In this document: one piece after another, positions 10,900 to 40,861 of the stretch
Numbering within the stretch: position 1 is the stretch's first letter
How the letters are laid out: the number at the start of each line of letters is the position of its first letter
From: Microcaecilia unicolor
Lineage: Eukaryota
Assembly: GCF_901765095.1 (NCBI RefSeq)
Contig: NC_044034.1
Span: 62,498,339-62,562,338 of the forward strand
DNA length: 64,000 nucleotides
Reading direction: 5' to 3'
Notes under the pieces: model-generated
The model's database searches: none
Told to the model about the DNA's origin: nothing
Seen by the model: only the letters and a program-made list of their open reading frames with translations
Program-made: the position numbers and the translations under genes

Positions 10900-13690
10900 G
10901 TACAATTGTGTAAATAATATAACATACTTATATGGAACAATCATTGGTTTCTGTTATCTAGGTTTTTTCCTCCCCCCCCCCCCTCCCTCCCTCCCACATT
11001 TCTCCCCCCCCAAACCTTTGTGCTTATAAACAGAATATTTATCTCTTTGTTTGTACATAAACATCCAAATAAAAATTAAATTCAACTAATAACTCTTGTT
11101 GTATGTTGCTGATTGGTTGCCTATCTTGATCCACCGAAATCGCAGATCACATACCTAGCCGTTTAATATTGCGGCAGTATCCTCTTGTAGACCAAGGTTA
11201 AAGATAATACAAAACAACCATCTATTTTGTGTTTTAGAAGCTTTTCTCCCCCCTATGCCCCCCATCCCTTCCCCCTCCTTCTCAGGTTGGTATACTTTAT
11301 TAACTTTATTAACTTCAAAATGACCTGAGCCTCAGTCATCTAAAACCTTCCCTGAACTGGGAAATAACCGTAATATATATTGACCTCGTTAAACAAATGT
11401 CAGGTATGGTCTTGAGATCAGGGCCTCATCCATCCTTTAACCTACCTAGCCAAGACTCTTTCCTTATTCCCCCAAAATCCCCCCCCTCCCCCCCTCCCTT
11501 CCCCTCCCTGCGCATTGCTTATAGTCCAATTCCCTTCACTGGTCCCAGGGAAGTCTATTCAAGATCTGACTTCTCGCCTTAGGTGATATGGTGTTTATAT
11601 ATGCCCCCCAGATTGCTAGAAACCTCCGCTGCCTTCCCGGCGACAGTCCCGCTCCTCTAGACTCCCATGTCAATAATTCCTGGAGTCTATTCCTCCAGTG
11701 CCAAAAGGAGGGTGGGCAATCCTCAGTCCAGTGGAGTAAGATGCATTTTTTCCCCAATATGCAGGCCTTGCTGAGAAACAATTTCTCTCCCCTCGTGGTT
11801 CCCATCCAGAGTCTGGGCATACTGAATATAGCTCTTTCAAATGTTATGCTGATTGTGCGCCCCAACACCCTTGTCAGGTATCTACCAATTGCCGCCCAGA
11901 ATGATGATATTGACCTACACTGCCAAATCCCATGAAATAAGTTTGCCTCCAACCTGAGACACTTCCTACAGTTCTGTGTGGTCAAGACTCCTGCTCTAAA
12001 AGCTTGTCTCTGCGAGAAATAGGCCCGATGGATAGTGCGGAAGTGACACTCCTGTAATTCTGCATTGTGAACTATGGTTACCCCACTCTGAAGAGCTGAC
12101 GATATTAACTGTGTAGAGATGTTTCTGCCTGACTCTATACTCCATCTATGTGCCACCTCTGTCAGGTCCCGTTCCCTTGCAAGCCTACCTAATTTATTGT
12201 AAAACCAGGACACTGAGATTTGTCCCGCTGCATCTCCTTCTAATAATTCTCTTAATTGTCTCCCAAATCGTGGGTGTAGACTATCTGGTGGGAGGGTATG
12301 CACATAGTGATATAACTGCCTGTACGCCAGCCAAGTGGCCGTTTTTTGCCCACACTTCTCCAAGAAGTCAGCGTACGAGAGCAAGGATCCATCTTCCCTT
12401 ACCAGCTCGTCCAACGAATGGACTCCCCTACTCTCTAATAATCGGAAAATCCTATTTTCATCTCCGGGCCTGAATGAAACATTCCCCCTCAGAGGCAACC
12501 ACACACTTCCTCTACTATCCTGCCCCCAATACATGAGCACCGTTTTCCACACATGTCTCATTGACTTTAATAGCACACTTCCTCTTACTTTTTCTGGTAA
12601 ATCTCTCCTTGGAGAGTGTATCAAAGATACCAGGTGCCAAGGCCTAAAGAGGTCTCGCTCAAGCTCCACATGTGTATAAGTATCTGAGTCCATCAACCAA
12701 TCTTTCAAATGTCTCAACAGACACGCCTGGTTATACTTGCGGATGTCTGGGAGTCCTAAGCCCCCCATCTTTTGTGCCCCTAATAGGTATTTCCATCTCA
12801 CTTTAGGTTTTCTACCCCCCCAGCAGAATTTCATCACTAATTTCCTAAGGGTTTCTAAATCTTTTTTGAGTAGCCACAGAGGAAGGGTTTGTAGAAGATA
12901 GAGCCATCTAGGGAAGACCATCATTCTGAACAAATGCAATCGTCCCAATAAAGTCAATGGCAAATTTGCCCAGTGCATCAGTTGCTCCTTTGTCTCCCGA
13001 AGGAACCTTTGCACATTAATGTCATATAACCTCGTCGGGTCCATTGCCAGCTGGATTCCTAAATATTTAAATGATGCGTTTGCCCACTGCAATGGGAATC
13101 CCTCTCCCCACAACCTCCGCAAATCATCTGAACCAGCCAACGCTTCTGATTTTAAAAGATTTAATCGGAAACCAGAAAAGTCCCCATATTCCGCCAGACT
13201 CTCCATCAGGTAGGGGAGGGAATCTCTAGGTTCAGTTATCAATACCAATAGGTCATCTGCAAACGCAGCTGTTTTAAAAAGAAAGTCCCCTATATGTACC
13301 CCCTTTACATCGGGATTAAGCTGCAGTTCCCGCAGCAGTGGATCCAGAGTTAGAACAAATAGCAGAGGGGAGAGAGGGCATCCCTGTCTAGTTCCTCTTC
13401 TAATCTTAAATCTATCTGAAGTTATACCATTTGCGTATACACGGGCTTCGGGGTCTTTATACAATGTTTGCACAGCTTCATTAAACCAGCCTTCTATCCC
13501 GTAAGCCTTTAATATACCAAACATGAAGCCCCAGTCCACTCTGTCAAACGCTTTTTCAGCGTCAAAGCTGATGAGTAAAGCTGGGTGTCCTTCCCTTCCA
13601 ATTGTCTCCAAAGCCGCCAGAATCCGTCTTATATTTTTGGCTATAACCCTTCCCCGAGTAAACCCCACTAATTGTTTGTATTTTATTAGC
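10900..13690 (-). mobile_element. L1-like LINE, 5' truncated, with no endonuclease domain, carrying the ORF2 RT and C-terminal domain
   Basis: ORF 11536-13668(-) of 710 aa has RT motifs 'LISFDAEKAFDRVDW', 'GTRQGCPLSPLLF' and 'FADDLL', plus the C-terminal Cys motif 'CRKCLRLEANLFHGIWQC'. A 3'UTR lies below 11536. Confidence 0.85.
11536..13668 (-). CDS. L1-like ORF2 reverse transcriptase, TE-encoded, 5' truncated but an open frame of 710 aa
   Basis: The RT motifs FDAEKAFD, QGCPLSP and the FADD box are all present in a single open frame. Confidence 0.85.
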   Translation of the reverse strand: MGFTRGRVIAKNIRRILAALETIGREGHPALLISFDAEKAFDRVDWGFMFGILKAYGIEGWFNEAVQTLYKDPEARVYANGITSDRFKIRRGTRQGCPLSPLLFVLTLDPLLRELQLNPDVKGVHIGDFLFKTAAFADDLLVLITEPRDSLPYLMESLAEYGDFSGFRLNLLKSEALAGSDDLRRLWGEGFPLQWANASFKYLGIQLAMDPTRLYDINVQRFLRETKEQLMHWANLPLTLLGRLHLFRMMVFPRWLYLLQTLPLWLLKKDLETLRKLVMKFCWGGRKPKVRWKYLLGAQKMGGLGLPDIRKYNQACLLRHLKDWLMDSDTYTHVELERDLFRPWHLVSLIHSPRRDLPEKVRGSVLLKSMRHVWKTVLMYWGQDSRGSVWLPLRGNVSFRPGDENRIFRLLESRGVHSLDELVREDGSLLSYADFLEKCGQKTATWLAYRQLYHYVHTLPPDSLHPRFGRQLRELLEGDAAGQISVSWFYNKLGRLARERDLTEVAHRWSIESGRNISTQLISSALQSGVTIVHNAELQECHFRTIHRAYFSQRQAFRAGVLTTQNCRKCLRLEANLFHGIWQCRSISSFWAAIGRYLTRVLGRTISITFERAIFSMPRLWMGTTRGEKLFLSKACILGKKCILLHWTEDCPPSFWHWRNRLQELLTWESRGAGLSPGRQRRFLAIWGAYINTISPKARSQILNRLPWDQ

Positions 13691-14620: not shown

Positions 14621-16099
14621 AAAAGAACCGTGAACAGTAAAAGTTGTAAACCTAAGTAGTACTTGAGGAGATCAAGAAAAGGAACTGCTCACAGGATTTG
14701 AATAGGGTTTCAGTGCAGATTTCTACCCCCCTCCACACTCCTACTCTGAGACTGGAGAATTCTAGCACCTGGCTAGATCTTGGGCTTCAGGGCCAATCAG
14801 GGTACAGAGCATTAGCCCTAAGGGTGTTTGACCAATGGCATTGCAGATTACTCTTGGGGTTTTCATCTTTTCTTTGGGGAAGATCAGCTAAAAGAAAAAT
14901 GGACCTCCGCTACAGCTATAGTGCAGAGGACAGACACCACCTGCTGGCTAAACACGGAAATTACCATGAAAGAGAAAAAGTGTCATAAGTCAACATTACA
15001 AATTGCAAGCATGAAAGTCTTTTGTTTCACCACAGGTTCATTCTAAGAACTTACTGCTTTTTCTTCTGGGTGCATTAAAATCTGTCATACTGGCATGCAT
15101 AGATCTCTGTACTCTTTAATGATGACCTCTTCTAATATAAGCTCCTGAAAATAGTAAAATCTCAGGACAGAGTCTTAAAAATTTCTACTATCATAATATG
15201 GTAAAATTATGCCAGTGTGCTAATAGTGACAAGCAAAAGTAAGTTGACGACAGCAGTCGGAGACTGGAGAACCTCAGTCTTATGTGGAGATCGTTTATTG
15301 ATGAAGGACTCCCATAAGATTGAGGTTCTCCAGTTGGTATTGTAGTATTGAGTCCCTTCTTTTTTTTTGTTCTGCCTGAACTCCCACAAGTGTGACGTGG
15401 TATGACGTGGCATTGAGAGGTACGGAAGTGAAGCTGTTTGAGTCGCTGCTGGGATGATCGGTTAATGGTGATGCTTGGAATTGCTGACAGGCTGCAAGAT
15501 TTGTGTTAAAATAGCTTGTTTTTGTAGCGTAATCCTGCAGGTGAGGGTTGGATTCAAATATGATGGTTTGTTTTAAGGGTAATTTTCTTTGATTTGCTGA
15601 GCGAGGAAAAGTTTGTTTTCTGGATTTGGCTTCTGGTGGGAATTGGTGTGTATTGGGGTGTGGAAAAAGTTTTTTTTTTTTAAAGGATTTTTTTTCCCCA
15701 AATGTTTTCTTTGGTGTGCTTTTTTCTGGTAACTCTGCAAAGCTCAGGTGGTGTATCAACATGCAGGGTTGCCACTGGGACAGTGTTGGGGAGTGGAATA
15801 AGTTATTTGGGTATGGCATGTTTAAAGGTAATGTTTGGGAGGGGTATTGACCCCCACACCTCCCCAAATGATCTAGAAGGGGAAAGGGAAGGAGATTAAT
15901 TGTCCTAGTGTGCTGTGCATTTTTGGTTATGGGTGGGAATTCTCCTCCCTAGTATGGTGGGAATTGTCCAGATGGGAATTGGTGGGTGGGAACTGACCTA
16001 GAACATCTCTTTAGTTTAGATTTTGAGACCCTTTTAGTTTGCAGGTATATATTTAAGGTCTGCACCTTTAATTCACAGGATAATTTACGGGGAAGTTCC

Positions 16100-16360
16100 A
16101 GAATATATGCTTGAATTGGTTGACTTGCCACCTAGAAATAGATCCAGTCTCTCACGATCCTACTTGAATCTACACTACCCAGACTGTAATGGCCTTAAGT
16201 ACAAATCTATTTATGCCTCCAACTTCACATATATAGGCACACAATTGTGGAATGCTCTACCCAAATTAGTCAAATGTACCCTGATCTACTTAAAATTCAG
16301 AAAATTATTGAAGACTGTAATGTTCAAAAAGGCTTATTCTCCAGGCTCAACATAATTCAA
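16100..16360 (+). repeat. Non-LTR retrotransposon or SINE 3'-tail fragment, the 'WNALP' tail type
   Basis: ORF 16107-16355 has 'YIGTQLWNALPKLVKCTLIYLKFRKLLKTVMFKKAY'. This resembles the conserved 3' tail module 'LWNSLP..IR...SL..FK..LKTHLF' shared by several vertebrate LINE and SINE families. Confidence 0.4.
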
Positions 16361-16484
16361 ATTAACTTCTAGTCTAACAAAGATTCAAAGACACTAGTTA
16401 TCTTTTTCTCTTTACATATTGTTGTTTCAAATGTTGTTTACTATCTTACTTTTAAACTGTATAATTGTACTTCATGCACTGTAG

Positions 16485-16560
16485 CCTTTTCTACAGATTG
16501 TGTAAGCCACATTGAGCCTGCAATTGGTGGGAAAATGTGGGATATAAATGTATTAAATAA
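16485..16560 (+). repeat. SINE tail fragment, 'gtaagccacattgagcctgc...gggatataaatg'
   Basis: It matches the 3' region of the SINE at 62270-62330. An equivalent fragment occurs at 58375-58450 as 'ctgtaagccacattgagcctgcaaaaaggtgggataatgtggggtacaaatgcaataaataaatgg'. Confidence 0.5.
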
Positions 16561-16858
16561 ATAAATATTTGCTTTCTTAACATTTTCCTTAGTTCTCCTA
16601 CATATATTCTTGAATCCAGTTTTGTGGACTTGAGTGATTAGTTTCCTATTGTTAGTCTTGTTTGTTTTGCAGTAATATTATTTTGATTTAAATTTTTCTA
16701 TTGGATCACTTTTCTGTACAAGTGCTTATTACTTGGTCGTATATTGTAAAAACTTGATAGATAAAAAAAATTTTAAAGAAAGAAAGTGGAAAGTCATGCA
16801 GAAATGACAATGATGTTTGAATCTTCTTCTATGGAAATCTTTAATATTGTCTTTATAG

Positions 16859-16996
16859 TGACATTCCAGTGAAAGTCTTGCAAGTATACAGAGTTGGCAG
16901 AATGAATGAAACAGCAGCATTTCAGAGCAAGTATGGCAATATTCAGTCCTTACTCCATTCCTCTTCTGTTTGCAACTTTGTTGGCATTCTCTCTCG
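16859..16996 (+). CDS. PARP4: PARP4 exon, catalytic domain
   Basis: Acceptor 'ctttatag|TGACATT' and donor 'TCTCG|gtaagt'. Encodes 'DIPVKVLQVYRVGRMNETAAFQSKYGNIQSLLHSSSVCNFVGILSR'. The phase is consistent with the previous exon and with the next exon at 25895. Confidence 0.8.
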
Positions 16997-17239
16997 GTAA
17001 GTGTGTGTTATATCCTGCTACATGGTTTTGTGGGTTTTTTGGTTCACGTTCTGTATTCAGTTGGTATTTCCCCGTTTCCAGAAAGCTTGCAGTCTTTGAG
17101 GGGAAATTATCAAAGTGGGTTGTTATCTTACTGTTATCCCAGTTTATTAGTAACTAGGTCTTATTGCAATAAAATAGGACCTGTGCTAAAATGAATTAGT
17201 GGTAAAATAATCAGAATAAATGGTAACCCACATTGCTAA

Positions 17240-17360
17240 CTTCCCCCATGTACCTGAGGCAATGGAGAGATAAATGCCTTGCCCAAAGTTACAGATCTGA
17301 ACCCTGACTGTACTGGTATTCAGCCCACTGCTGTAACCACTAGACTGTCCTTCCACTCTA
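17240..17360 (-). mobile_element. Partial copy of the same tRNA-derived SINE
   Basis: Segment 'gaggcaatggagagataaatgccttgcccaaagttacagatctgaaccctgactgtactggtattcagcccactgctgtaaccactagactgtcc' is the reverse complement of the SINE head and body. Confidence 0.55.
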
Positions 17361-17689
17361 ATGTTTATTCAGGCAGGGCCGGTCTTAGCAAGTGCAGGGC
17401 CCTGTGCAGACCAATTTGGTGGGGCCCCATCCTAGCCCCGCCCCTGCCCTAGCCCCGCCCCCACCCCAGCTCCACCCCATTGATAAGATTATTCAATTTT
17501 TAGAAATTTTTTTATGAAATTTCAAATTAAGACAAATGAAGCTAAACTTGTACAGAAAAACTGATTGAAATAATAAGCACAATGCTATCATGAACCCCCC
17601 CCCCCGAAATTATTCAGTTCAAGTCCACTACAATTAGTAGTTCCAATTCTCATAACCCCGGGGGGTCAGAGGTTCGGACACACAGTCTC

Positions 17690-18300
17690 CTTCTCTGCAC
17701 ATATTCAGCAGACTAATAAAATCTGTTGCTTCTTTCTCTATAATATCAACAAAATTCATACTTTCCTTTCTGAGCACACTACAAGAACCCTTATCCACAC
17801 TCTTATCACCTCTCATGTAGACTATTGCAACTTGCTTCTCACAAGTCTTTTACTAAGCCATCTCTCTCCCCTTCAATCTGTTCAAAATTCTGCTGCATGA
17901 CTTATATTCCTCCAGTGTTGCTTGCTATGCTCATATTAGCCCTCTTCTCAAGTCACTTCATTGGCTCCCTATCCATTTCTGCATACAGTTAAAACTCTTC
18001 TTATTGACTTACAAGTGCATTCAATCTGCAGCTCCTCAGTATCTTTCCACTCCTATATCTCCCTACACTCCTACCTGGAATTCTGTTCACTGGGTAAATC
18101 TCTCTTATCTGCGCTCTTCTCCTCCACTGCTAACTCCAGACTCTGTTCCTTTTATTTTGCTGTGCCATATGCTTGGAATAGACTTCCTAAGCCGGTACGT
18201 CAAGCTCCATTTCTGGCCGTCTTCAAATCTAGGCTAAAAGCCCACGTTTTTGATGCTGCTGCTTTTAACTCCTAACCCTTATTCACTTGTTCAGAACCCA
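17690..18300 (+). repeat. Non-LTR retrotransposon or SINE 3'-tail fragment, nested inside the hAT-like element
   Basis: The sequence translates to 'LLLTSL...PLLKSLHWLPIHFCIQLKLFLLTYKCIQSAAPQYL...FAVPYAWNRLPKPVRQAPFLAVFKSRLKAHVFDAAAFNS', which is the same conserved tail module. Confidence 0.45.
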
Positions 18301-18984
18301 TGTTTTATCATTCCCACCTTAGTAATTCCCTTATTTGTCTGTCCTAATTACATTGTAAGCTTTGTCGAGCAGGGACTATCTCTTCATGTCCAGTGTATAG
18401 TGCTGCGTACATATAATAGTGCTATAGAAATGGTAAGTAGTAGTAGTAGATGCTTTTCCTGGGCGGTGACTCCTAGTGTGGAACCTTGCATCACATAACT
18501 ATGGTTTGGGTTCCTCTTTCCCACATGCATCACTTTGCACTTGCTCACAATAAATGTCATCTGCCATTTGGATGCCCAGTCTCCCAATCTCATAAGGGCA
18601 TCTAGGAGCAAAAAGTTCAAACATAACTATACCTTCTCAAGCCTATGCACCTTCCTGAAAAAAAATGCCCAGTAACAAGGCAGTTTGTCACACTGTAGGT
18701 TAAAAAAAAAAAAGCCAAATTTAAGCGCATCATTTATTCTAGATTTCTAAAAGTGTATATTCCACCAGTCTGAGTCCACCAATGAAAAAAAAGAAAAAGA
18801 AAGCAACACCAAAAAATTGCAAATCAAAACATTTGAAGAAACAGAAAAGTCAATAGGCTAACAGCAAATTATAACTATGGTGGTATGACTGGTGGGCATA
18901 GGATCAGTGGTAATTACACAGCATTAGCCAGTTTTGTTTCAGTGAACCAAGTGCAGCTAAAAAGAACAGTGTGAAGGACTTCTG

Positions 18985-20612
18985 CTAACTAAGGCCCAGA
19001 TGATCAAAAGCCCTGCGCTGTTCCAAACAGCGCCCTAAAAATAGCGCCGGGACAGCGCAGGGCTTTTCTGCATCGATGATCAAAGATAATGCATACAAAT
19101 CTAAGCAGCGCTATTATCTTTGATTATCATGTTGACGTGCGGGAGAATTGCGCTCGAGCATGCGCTCAGCACAATCCTCCCGCACTTCTTTGACAAGTCT
19201 GGGCTGTCAAAAGCCCAAAACTGTCAGTGGCCTGCCGATCCCCCAACAAAGAGGCCACCGCCGCCGGCCAAACCGACTCCCACCCTCCCACCCAGCGATG
19301 GGGGGGGGGGCTGGAGGTCCAGTGGACCTCCGGTCTCCCCGACGACCCCCCCCATGTTCACGGAGGGCTGGAGATCCGGTGGTTCTCCAGCCCCCCCCAC
19401 GAACCCCCAGAGGACTTGGTTGCCGGCTTTAGAGAAACGCTGCCCTACCCTCCCATCTGCGACGGGGGGGGGGGGGGGGGGCTGGAGGATCGGTGGGTCT
19501 CCAGCCCCCCAAACCCCCAGAAATCGTTGTGATCCACCGGACCTCCAGCCCACCCCAACTCCTCCCCCCCCCGGCGTTCTCCACAAATCCCTGGTGGTCC
19601 ATGGTGACACTTAACCCACCCTCCTCCCTCCCTCCCGGCCCCCCTACCTTTGTTGGAGGAGGGACGCAGCCTGCATGCCTCCCTCCTCTTCCTTTCGACG
19701 CTCAGCCCCGCCCATTGCATCCTGGGATGTGCTGGGAGGGGCTACATACCATATAAGGGAGCGATTCCCTTACATGGTATGTAGCCCCCGCCCAGCGCAT
19801 CCCAGGATGCAATGGGCGGGGCTGGGCGCCGCCATTTTGAAGCGGCGTCGAAAGGAAGAGGAGGGAGGCATGCAGGCTGCGTCCCTCCTCCAACAAAAGG
19901 TAGGGGGGCCGGGAGGGAGGAGGGTGGGGTTACGTGTCATCACGGACCACCAGGGATTTGTTGAGAACGCGGGGGGGGGGAGGAGTTGGGGTGGACCTCC
20001 AGCCCCACCCCCCTTGTTGGTAGATTACAGCCCTTGGCCGGAGGTGGCCACAAGGATTTCTTGGGGTTTGGGGGGCTGGAGGCCCACCGAACGTCCAGCC
20101 CCCCCCCCCCCCGGCGCTGGTGGGAGGGTGGGACAACGCTTGGCCGGAGGCGACCACGAAGATTTCGTGGGGGGGGGGGGGGTTCAGGGGAGGGTCGGAT
20201 CGTTTGGGGGTGGGGGGGACCGGAGGTCCACCGGACCTCCTGTCCCGTGTGCTGTTGCCTTGGGGGGGAACGGGGGCCTGCCAGCATGCAACTGCATGCT
20301 GGACAGGGCTCACCATTCCTCCCCAATGATCCGCAAAACCTAACGCCAGCTTGGAGCTGGCGTTGATTTTGCTGCGGCCAGCGACCCAATCTTTGGCGCG
20401 CTGGTCGCTGATCATTGGGGATGAATGCGTTAAGCGCCAATTAGCATGCATTTGCAAGCTAATTGCGCTAGAAGCCCTGTTTAGCATGCATTTGCATGCT
20501 ATTTGCGCTGAGAGCCCTCGAGGGCTCTGATTATGGGTCGGCTGCAAACTCTGGTTCTAGTATGGCGTTAACAGCCTCTAGCGCCAGAGTTTGCTTTTGA
20601 TCATGAGGGCCT
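18985..20612. repeat. GC-rich long imperfect palindrome, an inverted duplication of about 1.6 kb centred near 19770, with a central ~55 bp-arm hairpin and termini 'CT(A/T)AGGCCC..ATGATCAAAAG'
   Basis: Segment 19560-19690 is the reverse complement of 19840-19980, for example 'ggcgttctccacaaatccctggtggtccatggtgacac' against 'gtgtcatcacggaccaccagggatttgttgagaacgc'. The central hairpin is 'ccccgcccattgcatcctgggatg..ggctacataccat ataagggagcgattccctta catggtatgtagcccccgcccagcgcatcccaggatgcaatgggcgggg'. The termini 'ctaaggcccagatgatcaaaag' at 18989 and 'cttttgatcatgagggcctaag' at 20594 are inverted. Repeated palindromic units such as 'ctggaggtccaccggacctccag' and long G and C homopolymers occur throughout. 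Confidence 0.65.
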
Positions 20613-21061
20613 AAGTGCTCATAATTTCAAGTGCATGTCCTGTGTAGCTCTGTGTGCACTGCACTGACCACACTAGGGGGTCATCAAGGCTTCCCCTTTC
20701 TCTATTATCTGTAGTTCATTGTTAGGAGGTTCTATTAAATTAGTCTTTCAGAAAGGCTGGCTGGAGTTAAAGATCAAACAGTTTAGGCAGGCCATCCTGC
20801 CTGCTTTGTGCATGCAAAGTCAGTGAAAATCAGGTAGTTGTGGATCAAAAACACCTCTGCTGCCAAGAATCTCTTTTGTTTAATGAACTCCTGTCAGTTC
20901 CCCCCCCCCCCCCACCCGGACACTTTCAGTCCCGCCTTTTACTTTAATTGCTTGCGGTCACAAATCCACCTGACCGAGAAGAAGGATTAACATATTCCCT
21001 AAGTGTCGGGATAAGCATAAAGGAATCCTGTGCCAAAGGAATGGATCCTCAGGAGCTTAGT

Positions 21062-21360
21062 CAGGATCGGGAGGCGGGGCTGGTGGTTGGGAGGCAGGGA
21101 TAGTGCTGGGCAGAGTTGTACGGTCTGTGCCAGAGCCGGTGGTGGGCAGCGGGACTGGTGGTTGGGAGGCGGGGATAGTGCTGGACAGACTTGTACGGTC
21201 TGTACCAGAGCCGGTGGTTGGGAGGCAGGGCGATGGTTGGGAGGTGAGGATAGTGCTGGGTAGACTTACACGGTCTGTGCCAGAGCCGGTGGTTGGGAGG
21301 AGGGGCAGGTGGTTGGGAGGCGGGGATAGTGCTGGGCAGACTTATACGGTCTGAGCCCTG
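21062..21360. repeat. Tandem repeat (minisatellite) with a period of about 77 bp and about 4 copies
   Basis: Unit 'ggtggttgggaggcggggatagtgctgggcagacttgtacggtctgtgccagagccggt' is repeated four times with minor variants. Confidence 0.8.
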
Positions 21361-21739
21361 AAGAGCACAGGTACAAATCAAAGTAGGGTATACACAAAAA
21401 GCAGCAAATATGAGTTATCTTGTTGGGCAGACTGGATGGACTGTGCAGGTCTTTTTCTGCCGTCATCTACTATGTTACTATGTAACAGCAATGATGCCTT
21501 AACTGAAAAGGTGAATAAATAAATGTATAGTTATGTTGATGTAAATATGCTGGGGGGGGGGGTCGTTTTGTTTTTAATTCTTCAACAGGCATTTTTCAGT
21601 GGACGATGTTCTTCTGCCACACGGTGATCGTGATCTACAGTTTAATTGCCCTGAAGAGGGGGAGGGGGAAGAGACTGCTGTGCTCCAGAGCTGGAAAAAA
21701 AGATGGGGAAGAAAAGCTAATAATCATAAATACCTGGCT

Positions 21740-24030: not shown

Positions 24031-24214
24031 TAAAGGACGTCCTTGGCATGCGCAGAGCAGCCAGCATAACGCTTGACTCTGCTCTGCGCATGCTCCACCG
24101 GCCAATTGGCTGACTGTTTAACGATGGAATAGAGAATGCAAGTGAGCTACAACGAGCAACTCATTTACATTCCTATTCCTTGATGCATGCCTGTTCCTTA
24201 CCGATCCATGTCCA

Positions 24215-24470
24215 GCAACCCTCCTCTCCCCGCCTACCCTCCCAGCACCAGGCAGGCAGGCCTCCCTCCCAGCACCAGGCATCCCTCCCTCCCACCAAGC
24301 ACCAGGCCTCCCTCCCTCCCACCCAGCATTCAGCATCAGGCCTCCCACCCTCTCTGCCACCCAGCACCAGGCCTCCCTCCCATCCAGCATCAGGCCTCCC
24401 TCCCTCCGAGCACCAGGCTGCCCGCCCTCCCTCCCTCCTAGCACCAGGGCCCCCCCCTCCTCCGAAATTT
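24215..24470. repeat. Minisatellite with a unit of about 21-24 bp, 'cctccctcccagcaccaggc'
   Basis: There are about 10 tandem degenerate copies. They give Pro/Ser-rich pseudo-ORFs on both strands. Confidence 0.8.
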
Positions 24471-24989
24471 AAAAGGCATACCTCGTCGGGGTTAAGGCGG
24501 CGTCGGCAGCGAAAAGTGTTTGCTCGGCGCGCCTTTGGCCTTCCCTTCTGTCTCTCAAGCTCTGGTCCCACCCTTGCGGAAATAGGAAATTAGGGCGCTC
24601 GATGTATGTGCTACGCGTAGCACAAAAGTGAGCCGGAAGCAGGGGACAGGGTGGACAATTAACTTGTTAATAACCATATAGGGGCAGGGGGCATGAGAGA
24701 ACCTATGTGAGAGGCTAGGAAGGGGGCAGGGGGCATGAGAGAAGCTGGATTAAAAAGCAGAACACTTGTTCAGGAGTATAGGGGAGTGCTTCTGCTTCAT
24801 ATTTGCTGAATGCAAGGGTGTTTTTTGTAGTGGGACAAAGAAGGAGTGTAGGGGAGGGGATCATTTGTGAAAAGAGAGGAGGGAGGGAAGATGGGGGATG
24901 TATCTTCGTTCTATTTTTGTTTTATTAATGACAATTCAGAATATTCATTTTTATACTGTAATAAAAGATTTAAATATAAAATCAACTGT

Positions 24990-28705: not shown

Positions 28706-29305
28706 TACTTATGTACTTATGTAGCTTCACAGTCTCAGCTCGATAAGGCTTTAATAGTCCTTGCTCCCCTGATCAAACCATCACGAAATCAAACCACTGT
28801 AGCTTGTGCTGTATGTACAAATTCACTTATTACAGTGCAATCATTGACAACTCACTTGTAACCTACTAAAAAGTCTTTACAAAAATAGTCACTCCAAATA
28901 TTTAATTTATAATTTTGTAGCTCTATTGAAGCAGCACCAATAATGTGGTCTTACTGACATCCAAACTCCACCGTGTCTAGCTCAAGACTTCAAGTTGGTT
29001 CGATCTTCAGCTTCTTCAGGAGTTGAATCAAATTGCTGTACTCTACAGGTCCACAGCCCAACATGTGAATAGGCAGTGGTGCTGAATATATGTACAAGGT
29101 AGTCACTGCTACTGGCATATGTATAGCGGCTATATTCAGCCATTGTACATATGGCTAAGCACTATGATTTAGGATTGCTTTCCCAGTACTCTTCAACTTT
29201 TCTATTTGTAGCCTTATAGGATAATTTTATAAAAGATGTCTAAATTGCTTTTATAAAATAGGCACTTTTTCACGTACTCCGAAGTTGTAATTGTGTGCCT
29301 GTACT

Positions 29306-29707
29306 CAGGGCCGCCGAGGGGGGGGGAGCCAGGGGGGACAAAATTCCCCAGGCCCGGGCCTCCAAGGGGGGCCCGGCGCCGCAGTCCCACCCGCCCTCCG
29401 TCGTCTACCGTCTGCCACAGGGCCGGGCCCCCTGCATTGAAATCACAGCGCCTCTCACCTCTGTGTGAAAGCGCAGCAGGGCAGCAGATCGCCTCCCTTC
29501 GGGCCTCCTTCCCTCCCTTTGTCCTGCCCTCGTCTGACGTAACTTCCGCGAGGGCGGGTCACAGGGGGGGAAGGAGGCCTGAAGGGAAGCAATCTGCTGC
29601 CTGCAGCGCTTTCACATGGAGGTGAGAGACGCTGTGATTTCAATGCAGGGGGCGGGGCCCCAGGGGCAGCCTTGCCCCAGGCCCGGCCCAGTCTCTCAGC
29701 GGCCCTG
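29306..29707. mobile_element. hAT-like MITE of 402 bp with TIR 'CAGGGCCGC.GAG' and 8 bp TSD 'CCTGTACT'. The body is a GC-rich nested palindrome with an exact TGACGTAA at its centre.
   Basis: The left end is 'cctgtact|CAGGGCCGCCGAGGGGG' and the right end is 'CTCAGCGGCCCTG|cctgtact'. The internal ~70 bp arms 'ccctgcattgaaatcacagcgcctctcacctctgtgtgaaagcgcagcagggcagcagatcgcctcccttc' and 'gaagggaagcaatctgctgcctgcagcgctttcacatggaggtgagagacgctgtgatttcaatgcaggg' flank the core 'gggcctccttccc...cgtctgacgtaacttccgcgagggcggg...gggaaggaggcc'. The TIR start CAGGGCCG is shared with the 4.85 kb hAT-like element. Confidence 0.65.
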
Positions 29708-30082
29708 CCTGTACTCTACACATGTTCTGCATATTTTATGTTTAAATCATTTTTATTCAAACAAACAAATCCAAGTACATTGCTACAACAACTGTCTGTA
29801 GAAATATCCCATTTCATCCAGTTTGTAAACTAACCTCCCAATTGCTACCCACTACACCTTTCCCATCCCTCCCCTCACCCCTCCCTCCCAAACATCCCTC
29901 CTCATCATTAAGTCTATAAGTTCAACAGGTGGCTCCGGGCTGAGGGTCTTAAAGTGTTCCAAAAGGGGCTCCAACTCTGTTGAAAACTATCTCCAGCTTT
30001 GGAATTAAAATCTGTAATTCCCACCCGCTCAATACGCATTAGAAATAGCATGTGCATACACCACTGTTATAGTGAAGGGTAT

Positions 30083-33704: not shown

Positions 33705-35071
33705 AATTTTAGAGTGCTTTATCGGGGAACTAATGCCCCCTACATTCCAAGATATTACTCATGTAGGCAAACGCTATTTAAAGAAACTAACATTGGTAAA
33801 GAGATATCCCCTATGCACATTCCTATCCCCTCCATTAAAACCTGTAAACATACATTCAGCAACATATTCATACAGATTCAATGCAATTTTGACCCTTCTT
33901 GCCCAGGTTAACAGTACCCTCAACCCTTCTATTTCCCGAGAACTCCTCCCCCTTCCCATGTAACCATTGTAAATCCAGTACAGGTCCCCTCATCCTTCCT
34001 ACCTTCCCTCCCCATTCCCCCCCAACCCTAAACTTAACCCAATCCATCTACCCAGGGAACAGACCTGGGGATGGAAGCAAAGATCACATTAAGTGCTAGG
34101 GACCCCAACCTCCAAATGCAACTGCTTATAGGCTATGTCACCATAATACACTATGTTAAAGCAACTAGTAATATATTTACTCCTGTACCACACCAACAAA
34201 TGCAACATGGATTAATCCGCATCAATCAATCTGTTGTTCAATAATGCTGATTTTGCCTCTGTTACAGTCTTGAAAGCTTGCCATTGACCTTGAATTGAAA
34301 CCCTTAATTGTGCTGGATATTGTAAAGCAAAATGAATTCTTTTATAAGAGCTGAGCAGAGAGGATGAAACTGTTGACGCTGCTTTGTGCGGGGGAGAAAT
34401 CTTGTAAAATCATCAGTATGTTGCGCCCGTCGTGCATCAGTGAGTCTCTCTGTAATTTAAACCCTCGAAGAATTTCAACTTTATGTCTGTAATTCAATAT
34501 TTTTGCCATAATTACTCTTGGTCAGTTCTGATCCTCCGATCTGCGCCCGACGCAATGTGCCCTTTCCACCACTACCGGGCCCATTGTGTCTGTAAGGGCC
34601 AATTCCTTAGCCAGCCAAGTCGCTAGGTTCCATTCAGGGAGTTTTTCTGTTAACCCCACTTTCTCCGAGGACAAGCAGGCTGCTTGTTCTCACTGATGGG
34701 TGACGTCCACGGCAGCCCCTCCAATCGGAATCTTCACTAGCAAAGTCCTTTGCTAGCCCTCGCGCGCCCGCGCGGCCGTCTTCCCGCCCGAAACCGGCTC
34801 GAGCCGGCCAGTCTTCTTTCGTCCGCACTTGGTACGGTTGTGTTTTTCGCCGTGTCGAGCCCCGGAGAGTCGACCTCGCGCGTCCTTTGTCTAATCGACG
34901 TGTTTTTTATTCGGAAAATATTAGAATTCGTTCGGGAAGTGCTCCGGAAGCCCCCTTGGGTTTCGTTTTGCCCCTTCCCGTATTTTCAGTCTTTGCCCCG
35001 GTAAGTTTTCTTTCGTCGTCGGGGTAGGCCTCTTTTCGGCCTCGGTCGAGATTTTTCTCCCTCAAAGTTTT

Positions 35072-37370
35072 TTGGTGCTCATTTTCGTCATTTTGGATTT
35101 TGATTTCGCCGGCGTGATTTTTCCGCCCATGACATCGAAGCCTTCCAGCGGCTTCAAGAAGTGCACCCAGTGCGCCCGGGTTATCTCGCTCACTGACAGG
35201 CACGCGTCGTGTCTTCAGTGTCTGGGGGCCGAGCACCGCCCTCAGGCCTGTAGTCTGTGTTCCCTTTTGCAAAGGCGGACTCAGGTAGCGAGATTGGCCC
35301 AGTGGAACGTTTTGTTCTCGGGCTCTTCGTCGGCATCGGCACCGGGGGTATCGTGTACATCGACGTCTTCAGCGTCCAGAGCTTCATCCTCGGCCGCCAG
35401 TGCATCGAGTGCATCGAGGCATCGGCCCTCTGCATCGGCGCCGAGACATCGGATAGCTGCATCGACGTCGGTGGTACCGGGACCTCGTCTGCTGATGTCG
35501 TCGGACGGTGGTGCATCGTCAGGTGAGGGCTGTCCATTCCCCTGCTGGTGGCGGTGAGCCTTCGGGTGGGTCTCCCCCTACCCTGAGGGCTCCTGCGGTA
35601 CAGCCCCCCCGAGACCGACCTCCTTCGGCCTCGGCCCCGAGGAAGCGACGGCTGGATTCTACATCCTCCTCGTCGGTACCGGGAAGCTCCGGTGACATGC
35701 TTCGTTCCAAGAAGTCGAAGAAGCATCGTCACCGGTCCCCTTCCCGTGTCGGTACCGAGAGCTCTGGGTCGCCGAGGGAGTCGGCACCCACCAGGCATCG
35801 GCACCGAGAGGACCGCTCACCCTCTGTTCAGGAGGTGTCGATGCGCTCCACTCTGGACAGCCCGGAACAGCCTCCACGCCCGGAACAGGTTCTGACGTCG
35901 ACGCCTGCATCAACCTCCATGCCTTTCTCTGCAGCCGCTCTGAACGAGAGCCTCCGGGCCGTTCTCCCAGAGATTCTGGGAGAGCTGTTGCGCCCTACCC
36001 CTCCGGTACCGGCGGTGCTTGCGCCACCGGTACCGTCGAGCGTGGCGCCGGCTGGCCCATCGCCCGAGGTGAGGTCTCCGGCGTTGGTGCCGCGTGCGGT
36101 GCCGGCTGCCGTCGCCTCCCAGGAGGGCTCCCCGACTACGTCGGCGGAGGGAGCTTCGCCGATGCGGGCGAGGGAGTCTACCTCTCGACGCCCCCATCGT
36201 GGACGTGGCTCCACGGAGTCGAGTCGGGCACGGTTGCAGACACAGGTCCGTGAACTTGTGTCTGACACCGAGGGTGAGGCCTCGTGGGAAGAGGAAGAAG
36301 ACCCCAGATATTTCTCTGACGAGGAGTCTGAGGGTCTTCCTTCCGATCCTACTCCCTCTCCTGAAAGACAGCTTTCTCCTCCTGAGAGTCTGTCTTTCGC
36401 TTCCTTTGTCCGGGAGATGTCTACGGCCATCCCCTTCCCGGTGGTTGTGGAGGACGAGCCCAGGGCTGAAATGTTTGAGCTCCTGGACTATCCTTCTCCA
36501 CCTAAGGAAGCGTCCACTGTTCCCTTGCACCATGTCCTGAAAAAGACATTGCTTGCGAACTGGACAAAACCATTAACTAACCCCCACATCCCCAAGAAGA
36601 TCGAGTCCCAGTACCGGATCCATGGGGACCCAGATCTGATGCGCACTCAGTTGCCTCATGATTCTGGAGTTGTGGATCTGGCCCTAAAGAAGGCTAAGAG
36701 TTCTAGGGAGCATGCTTCGGCGCCCCCGGGCAAGGACTCTAGAACCTTAGACTCCTTTGGGAGGAAGGCCTACCATTCTTCTATGCTCGTGGCCAAAATT
36801 CAGTCTTACCAGCTCTACACGAGCATACACATGCGGAACAATGTGCGGCAGTTGGCGGGCTTGGTTGATGCTCTCCCCCCTGAGCAAGCCAAACCTTTTC
36901 AGGAGGTGGTCAGGCAGCTGAAGGCGTGCAGAAAATTCCTGGCCAGAGGGGTGTATGACACCTTTGATGTTGCGTCCAGGGCCGCTGCTCAAGGTGTGGT
37001 GATGCGCAGGCTCTCATGGCTGCGTGCCTCCGACCTGGAGAATAGAATCCAGCAGCGGATTGCGGACTCGCCTTGCCGTGCAGATAACATTTTTGGAGAG
37101 AAAGTCGAGCAGGTGGTAGAGCAGCTCCACCAGCGGGACACCGCATTCGACAAGTTCTCCCGCCGGCAGCCTTCAGCTTCTACCTCTACAGGTAGAAGAT
37201 TTTTCGGGGGAAGGAAGACTGTTCCCTACTCTTCTGGCAAGCGTAGGTACAATCCTCCTTCTCGACAGCCTGCGGCCCAGGCTAAGCCCCAGCGCGCTCG
37301 CTCTCGTCAGCAGCGTGCGACTCAGCAAGGCCCCTCGGCTCCCCAGCAAAAGCAAGGGACGAGCTTTTGA
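35072..37370 (+). CDS. DIRS ORF1, gag-like, with an N-terminal CxxC...CxxC zinc-finger-like segment and a Ser/Pro/Arg-rich region
   Basis: ORF 35508-37370 of 620 aa is preceded in a neighbouring frame by 35072-35557 'CTQCARVISLTDRHASCLQCLGAEHRPQACSLCS'. Either a frameshift or alternative start lies near 35510, so the exact start is uncertain. The frame is continuous to a stop at 37370, which overlaps the ORF2 start as is usual for DIRS. Confidence 0.6.
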
Positions 37371-39192
37371 CTGGCTCCAGCAGAGCATAGCCGACATCCA
37401 AGTGTCAGTGCCGGGCGACCTGCCAGTCGGAGGGAGGTTGAAAGCTTTTCACCAAAGGTGGCCTCTCATAACCTCCGATCAGTGGGTTCTGCAAATAGTC
37501 CGGCAAGGATACACCCTCAATTTGGCCTCAAAACCTCCAAATTGTCCACCGGGAGCTCAGTCTTACAGCTTCCAGCACAAGCAGGTACTTGCAGAGGAAC
37601 TCTCCGCCCTTCTCAGCGCCAATGCGGTCGAGCCCGTGCCATCCGGGCAAGAAGGGCTGGGATTCTATTCCAGGTACTTCCTTGTGGAAAAGAAAACAGG
37701 GGGGATGCGTCCCATCCTAGACCTAAGGGCCCTGAACAAATATCTGGTCAAAGAAAAGTTCAGGATGCTTTCCCTGGGCACCCTACTTCCCATGATTCAG
37801 GAAAACGATTGGCTATGCTCTCTGGACTTGAAGGATGCCTACACACACATCCCGATACTGCCAGCTCACAGACAGTATCTGCGATTTCAGCTGGGCACAT
37901 GTCACTTCCAGTACTGTGTGCTACCCTTTGGGCTCGCCTCTGCGCCCAGGGTGTTCACAAAGTGCTTGGCTGTAGTAGCAGCAGCACTTCGAAGGCTGGG
38001 AGTGCACGTGTTCCCATATCTCGACGATTGGCTGGTGAAGAACACGTCCGAGGCAGGAGCCCTGCAGTCCATGCAGATGACTATTCGCCTCCTGGAGCTA
38101 CTGGGGTTTGTGATAAATTACCCAAAGTCCCATCTTCTCCCAGCGCAGAGACTCGAATTCATAGGAGCTCTGCTGGATTCTCGGACGGCTCGCGCCTATC
38201 TCCCAGAGGCGAGAGCCAACAACTTGTTGTCCCTCGTCTCTCGGGTGCGAGCGTCCCAGCAGATCACAGCTCGGCAGATGTTGAGATTGCTGGGCCACAT
38301 GGCCTCCACAGTTCATGTGACTCCCATGGCCCGCCTTCACATGAGGTCTGCTCAATGGACCCTAGCTTCCCAGTGGTTTCAGGCTGCTGGGGATCTAGAA
38401 GACGTGATCCACCTGTCCACGAGTTTTCTCGAATCCCTGTATTGGTGGACGATTTGGTCCAATTTGACTCTGGGACGTCCTTTCCAAATTCCTCAGCCAC
38501 AAAAAGTGCTGACCACGGATGCGTCTCTCCTGGGATGGGGAGCTCATGTCGATGGGCTTCACACCCAAGGAAGCTGGTCCCTCCAGGAACGCGATCTACA
38601 GATCAATCTTCTGGAGTTGCGAGCGATCTGGAACGCTCTGAAGGCTTTCAGAGATCGGCTGTCCCACCAAATTATCCAAATTCAGACAGACAACCAGGTT
38701 GCCATGTACTACGTCAACAAGCAGGGGGGCACTGGATCTCGCCCCCTGTGTCAGGAAGCCGTCAGCATGTGGCTCTGGGCTCGCCGTCACGGCATGGTGC
38801 TCCAAGCCACATATCTGGCAGGCGTAAACAACAGTCTGGCCGACAGGTTGAGCAGGATTATGCAACCTCACGAGTGGTCGCTCAACTCCCGAGTGGTGCG
38901 CCAGATCTTCCAAGCGTGGGGCACCCCCTTGGTGGATCTCTTCGCATCTCGAGCCAACCACAAAGTCCCTCAGTTCTGTTCCAGGCTTCAGGCCCACGGC
39001 AGACTGGCATCGGATGCCTTCCTCCTGGATTGGGGGGAGGGCCTGCTGTATGCTTATCCTCCCATACCTCTGGTGGGGAAGACTTTGTTGAAACTCAAGC
39101 AAGACCGAGGCACCATGATTCTGATTGCTCCTTTTTGGCCGCGTCAGATCTGGTTCCCTCTTCTTCTGGAGTTATCCTCCGAAGAACCGTGA
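37315..39192 (+). CDS. DIRS ORF2, reverse transcriptase, RNase H and the post-RNH domain; 625 aa, intact
   Basis: RT motifs include 'YFLVEKKTGGMRPILDLRALNKYL', 'LDLKDAYTHIPI' and 'FPYLDDWLV'. The RNase H has 'LTTDASLLGWGAHVDG' and 'IQTDNQVAMYYVNKQGGTGSRPL'. The C-terminal segment 'LLYAYPPIPLVGKTLLKLKQDRGTMILIAPFWPRQIWFPLL' is typical of DIRS. Confidence 0.9.
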   Translation: MRLSKAPRLPSKSKGRAFDWLQQSIADIQVSVPGDLPVGGRLKAFHQRWPLITSDQWVLQIVRQGYTLNLASKPPNCPPGAQSYSFQHKQVLAEELSALLSANAVEPVPSGQEGLGFYSRYFLVEKKTGGMRPILDLRALNKYLVKEKFRMLSLGTLLPMIQENDWLCSLDLKDAYTHIPILPAHRQYLRFQLGTCHFQYCVLPFGLASAPRVFTKCLAVVAAALRRLGVHVFPYLDDWLVKNTSEAGALQSMQMTIRLLELLGFVINYPKSHLLPAQRLEFIGALLDSRTARAYLPEARANNLLSLVSRVRASQQITARQMLRLLGHMASTVHVTPMARLHMRSAQWTLASQWFQAAGDLEDVIHLSTSFLESLYWWTIWSNLTLGRPFQIPQPQKVLTTDASLLGWGAHVDGLHTQGSWSLQERDLQINLLELRAIWNALKAFRDRLSHQIIQIQTDNQVAMYYVNKQGGTGSRPLCQEAVSMWLWARRHGMVLQATYLAGVNNSLADRLSRIMQPHEWSLNSRVVRQIFQAWGTPLVDLFASRANHKVPQFCSRLQAHGRLASDAFLLDWGEGLLYAYPPIPLVGKTLLKLKQDRGTMILIAPFWPRQIWFPLLLELSSEEP

Positions 39193-40331
39193 AGATTGGA
39201 GTGTTTTCCGACCCTCATCACGCAGGACGAAGGGGCTCTTCTGCATCCCAGCCTCCGGTCCCTGGCTCTCACGGCTTGGATGTTGAGAGCGTAGACTTTG
39301 CCTCTTTGGGTCTGTCAGAGGGTGTCTCCCGCATCTTGCTTGCTTCCAGGAAAGATTCCACTAAGAGGAGTTACTTCTTTCTGTGGAGGAGGTTTGCCGT
39401 CTGGTGTGACAGCAAGGCCCTAGATCCTCGCTCTTGTCCTACACAGACCCTGCTTGAATACCTTCTGCACTTGTCTGAGTCTGGCCTCAAGACCAACTCT
39501 GTAAGGGTTCACCTTAGTGCAATCAGTGCATACCATTACCATGTGGAAGGTAAGCCGATCTCAGGACAGCCTTTAGTTGTTCGCTTCATGAGAGGTTTGC
39601 TTTTGTCAAAGCCCCCTGTCAAGCCTCCTACAGTGTCATGGGATCTCAATGTCGTTCTCACCCAGCTGATGAAACCTCCTTTTGAGCCACTGAACTCCTG
39701 CCATCTGAAGTACTTGACCTGGAAGGTCATTTTCTTGGTGGCAGTTACTTCAGCTCGTAGAGTCAGTGAGCTTCAGGCCCTGGTAGCCCAGGCCCCTTAC
39801 ACCAAATTTCATCATAACAGAGTAGTCCTCCGCACTCACCCTAAGTTCCTGCCAAAGGTCGTGTCGGAGTTCCATCTGAACCAGTCAATTGTCTTGCCAA
39901 CATTCTTTCCCCGTCCTCATTCCTGCCCTGCTGAACGTCAGCTGCACACATTGGACTGCAAGAGAGCATTGGCCTTCTATCTGGAGCGGACACAGCCCAA
40001 CAGACAGTCCGCCCAATTGTTTGTTTCTTTTGATCCCAATAGGAGGGGAGTGGCTGTGGGGAAACGCACCATATCCAATTGGCTAGCAGATTGCATTTCC
40101 TTCACTTACGCCCAGGCGGGGCTGGCTCTTGAGGGTCATGTCACGGCTCATAATGTTAGAGCCATGGCTGCGTCGGTAGCCCACTTGAAGTCAGCCTCCA
40201 TTGAAGAAATTTGCAAAGCTGCGACGTGGTCATCTGTCCACACATTCACATCTCATTACTGCCTGCAGCAGGATACCCGACGCGACAGTCGGTTCGGGCA
40301 GTCAGTTCTTCAGAACCTGTTTGGGCTTTAG
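39193..40331 (+). CDS. DIRS ORF3, tyrosine recombinase (YR), the C-terminal part of the long 37458-40331 frame
   Basis: The YR region has 'SKRSYFFLWRRFAVWCD', 'VTSARRVSELQAL' (the catalytic R box), 'GHVTAHNVRAMAAS' (the H-x-x-R box) and 'ATWSSVHTFTSHY' (the catalytic Tyr region). The exact YR start inside the overlapping frame is uncertain. Confidence 0.8.
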
Positions 40332-40861
40332 GATCCAACTCCACCCCCCGAGGGCCCTGTTTGTTCTGTTCCAGGCTGCACTCTCAGTTAGTTGGTAAAT
40401 TTTTTTAGGTCAATCTCAGTTATGTCCTCGCCGTTGCGAGGCCCAATTGACCATGGTTGTTGTTTTGAGTGAGCCTGGGGGCTAGGGATACCCCATCAGT
40501 GAGAACAAGCAGCCTGCTTGTCCTCGGAGAAAGCGAATGCTACATACCTGTAGAAGGTATTCTCCGAGGACAGCAGGCTGATTGTTCTCACAAACCCGCC
40601 CGCCTCCCCTTTGGAGTTGTGTCTTCCCTTCTCTTGTCTTGCTACATATGAAACTGGCCGGCTCGAGCCGGTTTCGGGCGGGAAGACGGCCGCGCATGCG
40701 CGCGAGGGCTAGCAAAGGACTTTGCTAGTGAAGATTCCGATTGGAGGGGCTGCCGTGGACGTCACCCATCAGTGAGAACAATCAGCCTGCTGTCCTCGGA
40801 GAATACCTTCTATAGGTATGTAGCATTCGGTATACGCAAGTTGTTCCTGTGGGAGCGGTTT

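Follow-up and report, generated by a model that had tools for sequence, protein, structure and literature searches.

This study deals with a GC-rich palindromic element found in genomic DNA of Microcaecilia unicolor (NCBI RefSeq assembly GCF_901765095.1, contig NC_044034.1, forward strand, positions 62,498,339 to 62,562,338). This stretch of 64,000 nucleotides, hereafter called the window, is vertebrate-like, transposon-rich DNA with a GC content of about 45% and an observed/expected CpG ratio (CpG o/e) of 0.44; all positions are counted from its first letter. The element spans 18993-20611 (1,619 bp) and consists of short terminal inverted repeats (TIRs), two outer segments and a large imperfect palindrome, with a TAA triplet on either side as candidate target site duplication (TSD). 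Its features are collected in Table 1.

Ends and architecture of the element

The limits of the element were set by the two TIRs. The TIR reads GGCCCAGAT (terminal string GGCCCNNATGATCAAAAGC), its first bases being GGCC. When the window was scanned for this repeat with up to three mismatches allowed, two matches were obtained, both of them the ends of the element, for 0.02 expected by chance. Inverted termini had already been recorded in a first-pass annotation made from the sequence alone; the strings quoted there match at 19 of 22 positions, and the core TIR at 17 of 19. The same annotation had been unable to identify a TSD, a statement that has to be corrected, as the TAA triplets form a direct repeat immediately outside the TIRs. 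The probability of finding paired TAA/TTA triplets at these fixed positions by chance was about 0.0006-0.001. The junctions between flank and element read CTAA/GGCCC and GGGCC/TAAG, and the target site could be reconstructed as AAC-TAA-GTG (...TTCTGCTAAC-TAA-GTGCTCATAA...), with a quasi-palindromic core, ACTWAGT.

The base composition changes at the same two points. As announced by the first-pass annotation, the segment 18985-20612 is GC-rich (62%, versus 38% in the left flank, 16000-18990). The GC content rises from 34-45% outside the TIRs to 49-69% inside. CpG dinucleotides, at 0-0.67 per 100 bp over the 300-bp flanks, reach 4-6.4 per 100 bp within the element, and both steps are located exactly at the TIRs. 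The first internal CpGs are found within 25-30 bp of each terminus, and the CpG o/e within the element is 0.56-0.86. Such a step fits an inserted unit that is younger than its flanks, or methylated differently from them.

Table 1. Features of the element and its immediate borders, in window coordinates
Feature	Position	Strand	Remarks
Left TSD copy (candidate), TAA	18990-18992		Direct repeat of 20612-20614, directly outside the TIR
Left TIR, GGCCCAGATGATCAAAAGC	18993-19011	+	19 bp
Left subterminal hairpin	19006-19067		19-bp stem, 18 paired; begins inside the TIR
Second left hairpin	19075-19128		Stems bear the TIR-like motif GATGATCAAAG and an inverted copy
Rest of left outer segment	19134-19290		Local hairpin chain; without mirror partner on the right
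Left palindrome arm	19291-19762		C-rich on + strand; units U1-U4; G11/G18 runs
Central hairpin	19734-19792		Arms 19734-19760/19766-19792; 24/27 paired; 5-nt loop GCGAT, 19761-19765
Right palindrome arm	19764-20260		Units U5-U7; G10/C14/G14 runs
Right-arm-only segment, GGCGCCGCCATTTTGAAGC	19824-19843 (+/-2 nt)		About 19 nt; small hairpin; gap in the arm alignment
Right outer segment	20261-20543		Nested hairpin chain; 28-nt inverted repeat 20283-20310/20473-20500; 40-bp tandem repeat, two copies, 20441-20518
Right subterminal hairpin, GCAAACTCTGG...CCAGAGTTTGC	20544-20594		Abuts and overlaps the TIR
Right TIR, reverse complement GGCCCTCATGATCAAAAGC	20593-20611	-	17/19 match to left TIR
Right TSD copy (candidate), TAA	20612-20614		Direct repeat of 18990-18992
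Pseudo-ORF, 164 aa, Pro/Gly-rich	19120-19614	+	No Pfam family
Mirror pseudo-ORF, 205 aa, Pro/Gly-rich	19930-20547	-	No Pfam family; no homologue among 5.8 billion clusters

The palindrome was tested by gapped global alignment of 18985-20612 with its own reverse complement, shuffled sequences serving as control. The alignment score was 511 (shuffles: 32±16), with an identity of 63% over all columns, gaps included, and of 84% over non-gap columns. The whole segment had been described as an inverted duplication. This description holds for 19291-20260 (about 970 bp, centred at 19763), whose arms are 87% identical over aligned bases (z=33 against shuffles). It does not hold for the outer parts, 19012-19290 and 20261-20592, whose complementarity is not significant (z=2.2). 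Between the arms, 55 substitutions were counted, of which 30 are transitions and 25 transversions, along with indels of 4, 19 and about 50 nt. Identity is highest around the centre, where it reaches 95% for the innermost arms of about 215 bp (19550-19762 versus 19764-19994; z=28). The central hairpin noticed earlier was recovered there, and pairing continues beyond it at 91-93%, in blocks of 46-79 nt, as far as 19550/19994.

The short palindromic units reported for this segment are likewise present. They correspond to a 23-nt unit, G(n)-CTGGAGGTCC-NNN-GGACCTCCAG-C(n), of which seven diverged copies are irregularly spaced in the arms; no regular array of them was detected by Tandem Repeats Finder. 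The long G and C homopolymers, also pointed out before, do occur, up to G18 at 19464-19481, but they are not special to the segment. The element contains five runs of at least 10 nt (G18, C14, G14, G11 and G10) out of the 20 present in the 64 kb, the longest being C21 at 3309. Since 15 runs lie outside the element, they represent a genomic habit which is enriched in it, and the repeats of this genome seem to carry long G/C runs in general.

Folding of the core as single-stranded DNA, a check suggested by the first-pass annotation, gave a strong structure (dG of -452 kcal/mol, z = -38). The element has 3.7 G-quadruplex motifs per kb, ten times the density found elsewhere in the window (0.37 per kb). 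Judging from these predictions, the DNA of the element would have a strong tendency to extrude cruciforms or hairpins and to form G-quadruplexes, and fork stalling, cloning difficulty and cruciform extrusion are physically plausible at this place.

The outer segments (about 300 bp on the left and 350 bp on the right) are organised as chains of local hairpins and are mirror images of each other only in the 19-bp termini. Both fold more stably than expected as DNA, with z = -8.7 for the 298 nt on the left and z = -12 for the 351 nt on the right. In the whole element, 24 hairpins with a stem of at least 9 bp were counted; the other 37 chunks of the same size (1.6 kb) in the window contain 5 on average and 14 at most. 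Each TIR is accompanied by a subterminal hairpin with a stem of about 20 bp. Furthermore, three of the four GATGATCAAAR sites of the window are found at the left end, at 18999 (in the TIR), 19075 and 19118 (inverted), and these repeats are candidate subterminal binding sites.

Several motifs were recognised by eye near the palindrome centre (19700-19845). They comprise GC-box-like motifs (GGGCGGGG; GCCCCGCCC / GGGCGGGGC), a CArG-like motif, CCATATAAGG, which is mirrored imperfectly by CCTTACATGG, and a YY1-like motif, GCCGCCATTTTG, inside the 19-nt insertion restricted to the right arm.

Coding and RNA potential

The two mirror-image open reading frames (ORFs) described by the first-pass annotation were found at the positions given in Table 1. 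They belong to a set of at least six overlapping ORFs on both strands of the element, where lengths of 164-222 aa occur, and their peptides end in mirrored strings on opposite strands (...PTPTPPPPGVLHKSLVVHGDT for 19120-19614 and ...STPTPPPPRVLNKSLVVRDDT for 19930-20547). None of three long ORFs matched a Pfam family, and two of them had no homologue among 5.8 billion protein clusters. The designation as pseudo-ORFs was thus appropriate. Comparison of the two mirror ORFs by BLASTP returned weak segments only, a consequence of the composition correction, by which low-complexity stretches are masked. It is from the C/G runs and the palindrome that the long ORFs result, the homopolymers driving their composition, and a protein-coding role of the element was rejected for want of any Pfam family or homologue.

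No hit was obtained over the element with Rfam at the gathering score. In a permissive scan, dozens of unrelated microRNA (miRNA) models fell on the same hairpins and on both strands, with 16-38 bits for thresholds of 47-168; these are generic sub-threshold matches to GC hairpins, and membership in a known RNA family (miRNA or other Rfam) was rejected. Covariation was examined in the seven hairpin units. The fraction of cells that pair (81%) was equal to the mean of column shuffles, and double-sided changes numbered 2 for 1.1 expected. Pairing equal to that of shuffles gives no evidence of selection for pairing. It was concluded that the element encodes no protein and no recognisable RNA.

Classification and alternative explanations

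A non-autonomous fold-back transposon had been suggested for this segment by the first-pass annotation. This is the best-supported reading, and it is strengthened by the TIR, the TAA duplication and the sharp compositional boundaries. We therefore consider it probable, with a fair measure of doubt, that the unit 18993-20611 represents a single insertion of a cut-and-paste DNA transposon which is non-coding and non-autonomous, PIF/Harbinger being the most probable superfamily. This superfamily is defined by TIRs of 14-25 bp (or 25-50 bp) together with a 3-bp TTA or TAA duplication (PMC2213677; PMC9179366). The TIR found here is 19 bp long, within a range of roughly 14-50 bp, and is unique in the window, and the duplication is TAA; both were observed on a single copy, so that the assignment, drawn from these end sequences, is provisional.

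Comparison with known members supports the assignment in several respects. The 19-bp TIR starting with GG and the 3-bp TAA duplication resemble those of non-autonomous PIF/Harbinger elements, namely the Tourist-like MITEs (miniature transposable elements with inverted repeats) mPing and mPIF and vertebrate Harbinger-N (PMC2213677, PMC4561436, PMC9179366, PMC3016246). In the TSD of mPing, T and A are required at the outer positions (PMC4561436), and the palindromic target into which Harbinger3_DR integrates has a W at its centre (PMC3016246). Harbinger elements are present in turtle and newt lineages and absent from mammals (PMC9179366). The element shares with this group a quasi-palindromic target with a central W and the lack of coding capacity. 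Maize PIF is reported to prefer the target CWCTTAGWG, the core of which, CTWAG, agrees with the site at the element.

A close parallel by description, which is the only level at which the two were compared, is Harbinger-N12A_XT of Xenopus tropicalis. This non-autonomous element has TIRs and palindromic internal repeats, is best conserved at its centre, and some of its copies lie in liver open chromatin (PMC12676858). Both elements are amphibian, with a palindromic interior and a best-conserved centre; they differ in size, the Xenopus consensus being 342 bp long and our element 1,619 bp.

As the element has no coding capacity, its transposition must depend on proteins supplied in trans. Mobilisation would be carried out by a Harbinger-type DDE transposase, and a Myb-like DNA-binding partner would act on the TIR and the subterminal motifs. 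The fold-back would have arisen by inverted duplication of an internal segment, through template switching or hairpin-primed repair, either in the ancestor of the family or in this copy, and would have decayed subsequently.

Another GC-rich, fold-back element of the window, a hAT-type MITE of 402 bp (29306-29707), can be set beside it. It has termini CAGGGCCGCCGA.../...TCAGCGGCCCTG, a perfect 8-bp direct repeat, CCTGTACT, at 29298-29305 and 29708-29715, and a nested palindrome as interior (arms 29420-29532/29549-29660), from which a 110-aa Pro/Arg-rich pseudo-ORF (29293-29625) arises. Like the 1.6-kb element, it is non-coding, TIR-bounded and internally palindromic, with an intact duplication; unlike it, it is short, with an 8-bp duplication and CAGGG... 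termini, and the two have no sequence similarity. The length of the duplication and the CAGGG... termini place this MITE in another superfamily than the element. Its presence indicates that the genome does carry GC-rich fold-back non-autonomous elements.

Several observations weigh against the PIF/Harbinger assignment. With 1.6 kb and long unique outer segments, the element exceeds in size and complexity the typical Harbinger MITEs, which usually remain below 0.5-0.8 kb; its interior is made of a fold-back of about 970 bp and of hairpin chains, and no sequence relative at the family level was found. The window contains no second copy and no autonomous partner, and no copy turned up in the protein collection either. 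Among the criteria of the superfamily are TIRs held in common with an autonomous element encoding a DDE (IS5-like) transposase and a Myb-like protein, and several dispersed copies that have identical ends and TWA duplications of their own. A search with the joined flanks for a paralogous empty site yielded only an older repeat, whose end lies about 550 bp to the left of the point of insertion. The TIR pattern, scanned for in contigs of metagenomes, prokaryote genomes and viruses, collections without vertebrate genomes, gave 113, 77 and 2 hits, respectively (about 70 expected by chance for the prokaryote-genome contigs), none of which extends past 19-28 nt, that is, only chance 19-mers. The motif G(N)5GTT of plant PIF TIRs is absent; it is a mining criterion for Medicago and plant PIF elements (PMC2213677) and is not defining for the superfamily in animals. 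Finally, a 3-bp duplication seen in one copy may be a coincidence, and two other readings of the end bases exist, a 5-bp repeat (CTAAG) and an inverted repeat of 24 nt with three mismatches.

The diagnostic sequence strings of the element were met in no paper by a full-text literature search, and searches of plasmid and phage DNA with the element returned no match. With contig matches at the chance level, an origin from a bacterial insertion sequence, a vector or a phage was rejected.

Other transposon groups were examined by the same kind of evidence. hAT elements are recognised by an 8-bp duplication and YARNG-type TIRs. No 8-bp direct repeat exists at the ends of the element, although the hAT-type MITE of the window, used as control, had one, and hAT membership was rejected. 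The same applies to piggyBac and Kolobok (TTAA) and to Tc1/mariner (TA), as neither TTAA nor a symmetric TA is present at the flanks. The foldback transposons FB of Drosophila, Galileo and Tetris resemble the element by long inverted repeats of diverged sub-repeats, by a strong potential for secondary structure and by mostly non-coding copies (PMC4079207, PMC3688188). In these transposons, however, the long inverted repeats are the termini, whereas the fold-back described here is internal, at 300-350 bp from short TIRs. They are related to P and MULE elements and have duplications of 7-9 bp, superfamilies and lengths unlike those of the element. With an internal fold-back and outer 300-350 bp that are not complementary, an FB-like nature was rejected.

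An unlikely but serious alternative is that the element is a non-autonomous DNA transposon of some other superfamily, or a composite in which the fold-back is nested in a TIR-bounded shell. For another superfamily speak the reading of the ends as a CTAAG duplication, with a TIR starting GCCCAG..., and the fact that 3-bp duplications are also made by CACTA, Zator and Academ elements. However, the TIR does not start with CACTA and is unlike the CACGGTG-type end reported for Transib; moreover, a TAA duplication in a C-TAA-G target gives the CTAAG reading of necessity, as G is the first and C the last base of the element. A composite would account for outer segments unrelated to the inner palindrome and for the 8-mer GGCCTGCC found on both sides of it, at 19229 and 20275. 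Between these 8-mers and the last bases that pair there are nevertheless 70 and 29 bp, and a systematic scan by which both positive controls were recovered found no TIR and TSD pair at the palindrome borders. On this ground, nested insertion of the palindrome into the shell was rejected.

It is doubtful that the palindrome arose where it now stands, through break repair or through template switching during replication, in DNA that was never mobile, the TIR and TAA being coincidental. A local fold-back duplication followed by decay could produce the gradient of identity, from 95% at the centre and falling outward; G/C runs and repeats with hairpins abound in the genome, and a single copy was seen. 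But a duplication in place would have copied flanking DNA, while the actual flanks are AT-rich, CpG-poor, unrelated to the interior and separated from it by steps exactly at the TIRs. In addition, coincidence would have to place a 17/19 TIR some 300-350 bp outside the palindrome, across non-complementary DNA, with TAA at both ends (p of about 0.001).

A functional structured locus is improbable, whether as a cluster of hairpin RNAs or miRNA-like RNAs or as a bidirectional promoter or enhancer which derives from a transposon and lies at the centre of the palindrome; it would be compatible with a transposon origin. The abundance of local hairpins relative to other 1.6-kb chunks, the retained CpG, a centre that is the best-conserved part, as in the Xenopus Harbinger MITE (PMC12676858), and the GC-box-, CArG- and YY1-like strings seen there by eye would be in its favour. 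Against it, no Rfam family reached its threshold, the miRNA models that fell on both strands were unrelated to one another, and the hairpin units contain no excess of pairing or of compensatory change over shuffles.

There is a similarly slender chance that the element belongs to an undescribed vertebrate Harbinger-like lineage whose whole body is a programmed hairpin chain, the hairpins next to the TIRs and the large central fold-back giving the structure a function. Such a chain may play a part in transposition, through structured or single-stranded intermediates or by docking of transposase and Myb protein on the hairpins. Alternatively, it may act after insertion, as a source of hairpin RNA (endogenous small interfering RNA) or as a CpG-rich bidirectional regulatory module at the GC-box/CArG-like core.

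The first-pass annotation had been concerned about an assembly artefact, caused by a fold-back or chimeric long read or by a collapsed inverted repeat. Palindromes and long homopolymers are classic trouble spots of assembly, and the differences in homopolymer length between the arms (G18 versus C14) could be technical. The pattern of arm divergence does not support the concern: a chimeric read should yield nearly identical arms reaching into the flanks, and arms that differ by 55 substitutions and by indels up to about 50 nt make a fold-back artefact unlikely. Furthermore, the outer 300-350 bp differ from side to side, the unit is bounded by TIR and TSD, and the unique flanks are not duplicated. 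We consider this explanation very improbable.

As for the long ORFs on both strands, the proposal that they encode real Pro/Gly-rich proteins is effectively refuted by their overlap, mirrored peptide ends and homopolymer-driven composition and by the empty Pfam and protein-cluster searches.

Surrounding repeats and significance

The remainder of the window contains further repeats. LINE (long interspersed nuclear element) reverse transcriptase (RT) ORFs are found at 5-1747, 11536-13668 (minus strand) and 30.3-33.7 kb (minus strand). An apparently intact DIRS-type retroelement occupies 35070-40830, with a gag-like ORF of 620 aa, an RT/RNase H ORF of 625 aa, a tyrosine-recombinase region containing Phage_int_SAM_4, and a CpG o/e of up to 0.94. 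On its 3' side, at 40534-40829, lies a 58-nt inverted repeat (98%). According to a homology search, the nearest relatives of its RT are turtle proteins and proteins of the newt Pleurodeles, with 48-50% identity at best, which points to a tetrapod host of amphibian- or reptile-like kind; an exact look-up of the DIRS ORF gave no record. At 54.2-57.5 kb there is another DIRS-like copy, in a degraded state, with 61-nt inverted repeats at its limits (54305/57439).

An AT-rich inverted-repeat element is present at 2193-2595, with arms of 119 nt (92%) and termini CTACAAAGTACT.../...AGTACTTTGTAG. No obvious duplication was found beside it, a poly-A run lying on the left and TTTTT on the right. In 2014, Han et al. 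(reference 25 in PMC9179366) reportedly described insertion between AAA and TTT without TSD as the signature of the 'Spy' PIF-like elements.

A second GC-rich block, unrelated to the 1.6-kb element, extends from 47790 to 48170, with C11 and C14 runs. It contains a hairpin at 47959-48078 (57-nt arms, 88%; 6-nt loop), and the identical peptide GRGSMETNDAD is read from either strand. The block sits within a repeat of about 47.0-48.4 kb, where further small hairpins occur at 47022-47071 and 47268-47326. At 21069-21369, about 450 bp past the right end of the element, a GC-rich tandem repeat of 75 bp is present in four copies, which are 77-91% identical to the reference copy and are preceded by a C14 run at 20900; no kinship of this repeat to the palindromic element was detected. 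Finally, a CT-rich minisatellite with periods of 23-31 bp lies at 24232-24460, with Pro/Ser-rich pseudo-ORFs on both strands (24173-24593).

Most likely, the element is an ordinary kind of transposon in an unusually structured form. If this reading is true, it adds one more non-autonomous DNA transposon to a transposon-rich genome, which is useful for repeat annotation and unsurprising. Given a fold-back of about 970 bp, 24 hairpins, runs of G or C that reach 18 nt and G-quadruplex motifs in 10-fold excess, the locus is likely to be a hotspot of deletion, of stalled replication and of errors in sequencing and assembly, and annotators could mistake the spurious long ORFs on both strands for Pro/Gly-rich proteins. 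Interest in the family would grow if its sister copies turned out to be conserved at their centres or located in open chromatin, as in the case of the palindromic Harbinger MITE of Xenopus.

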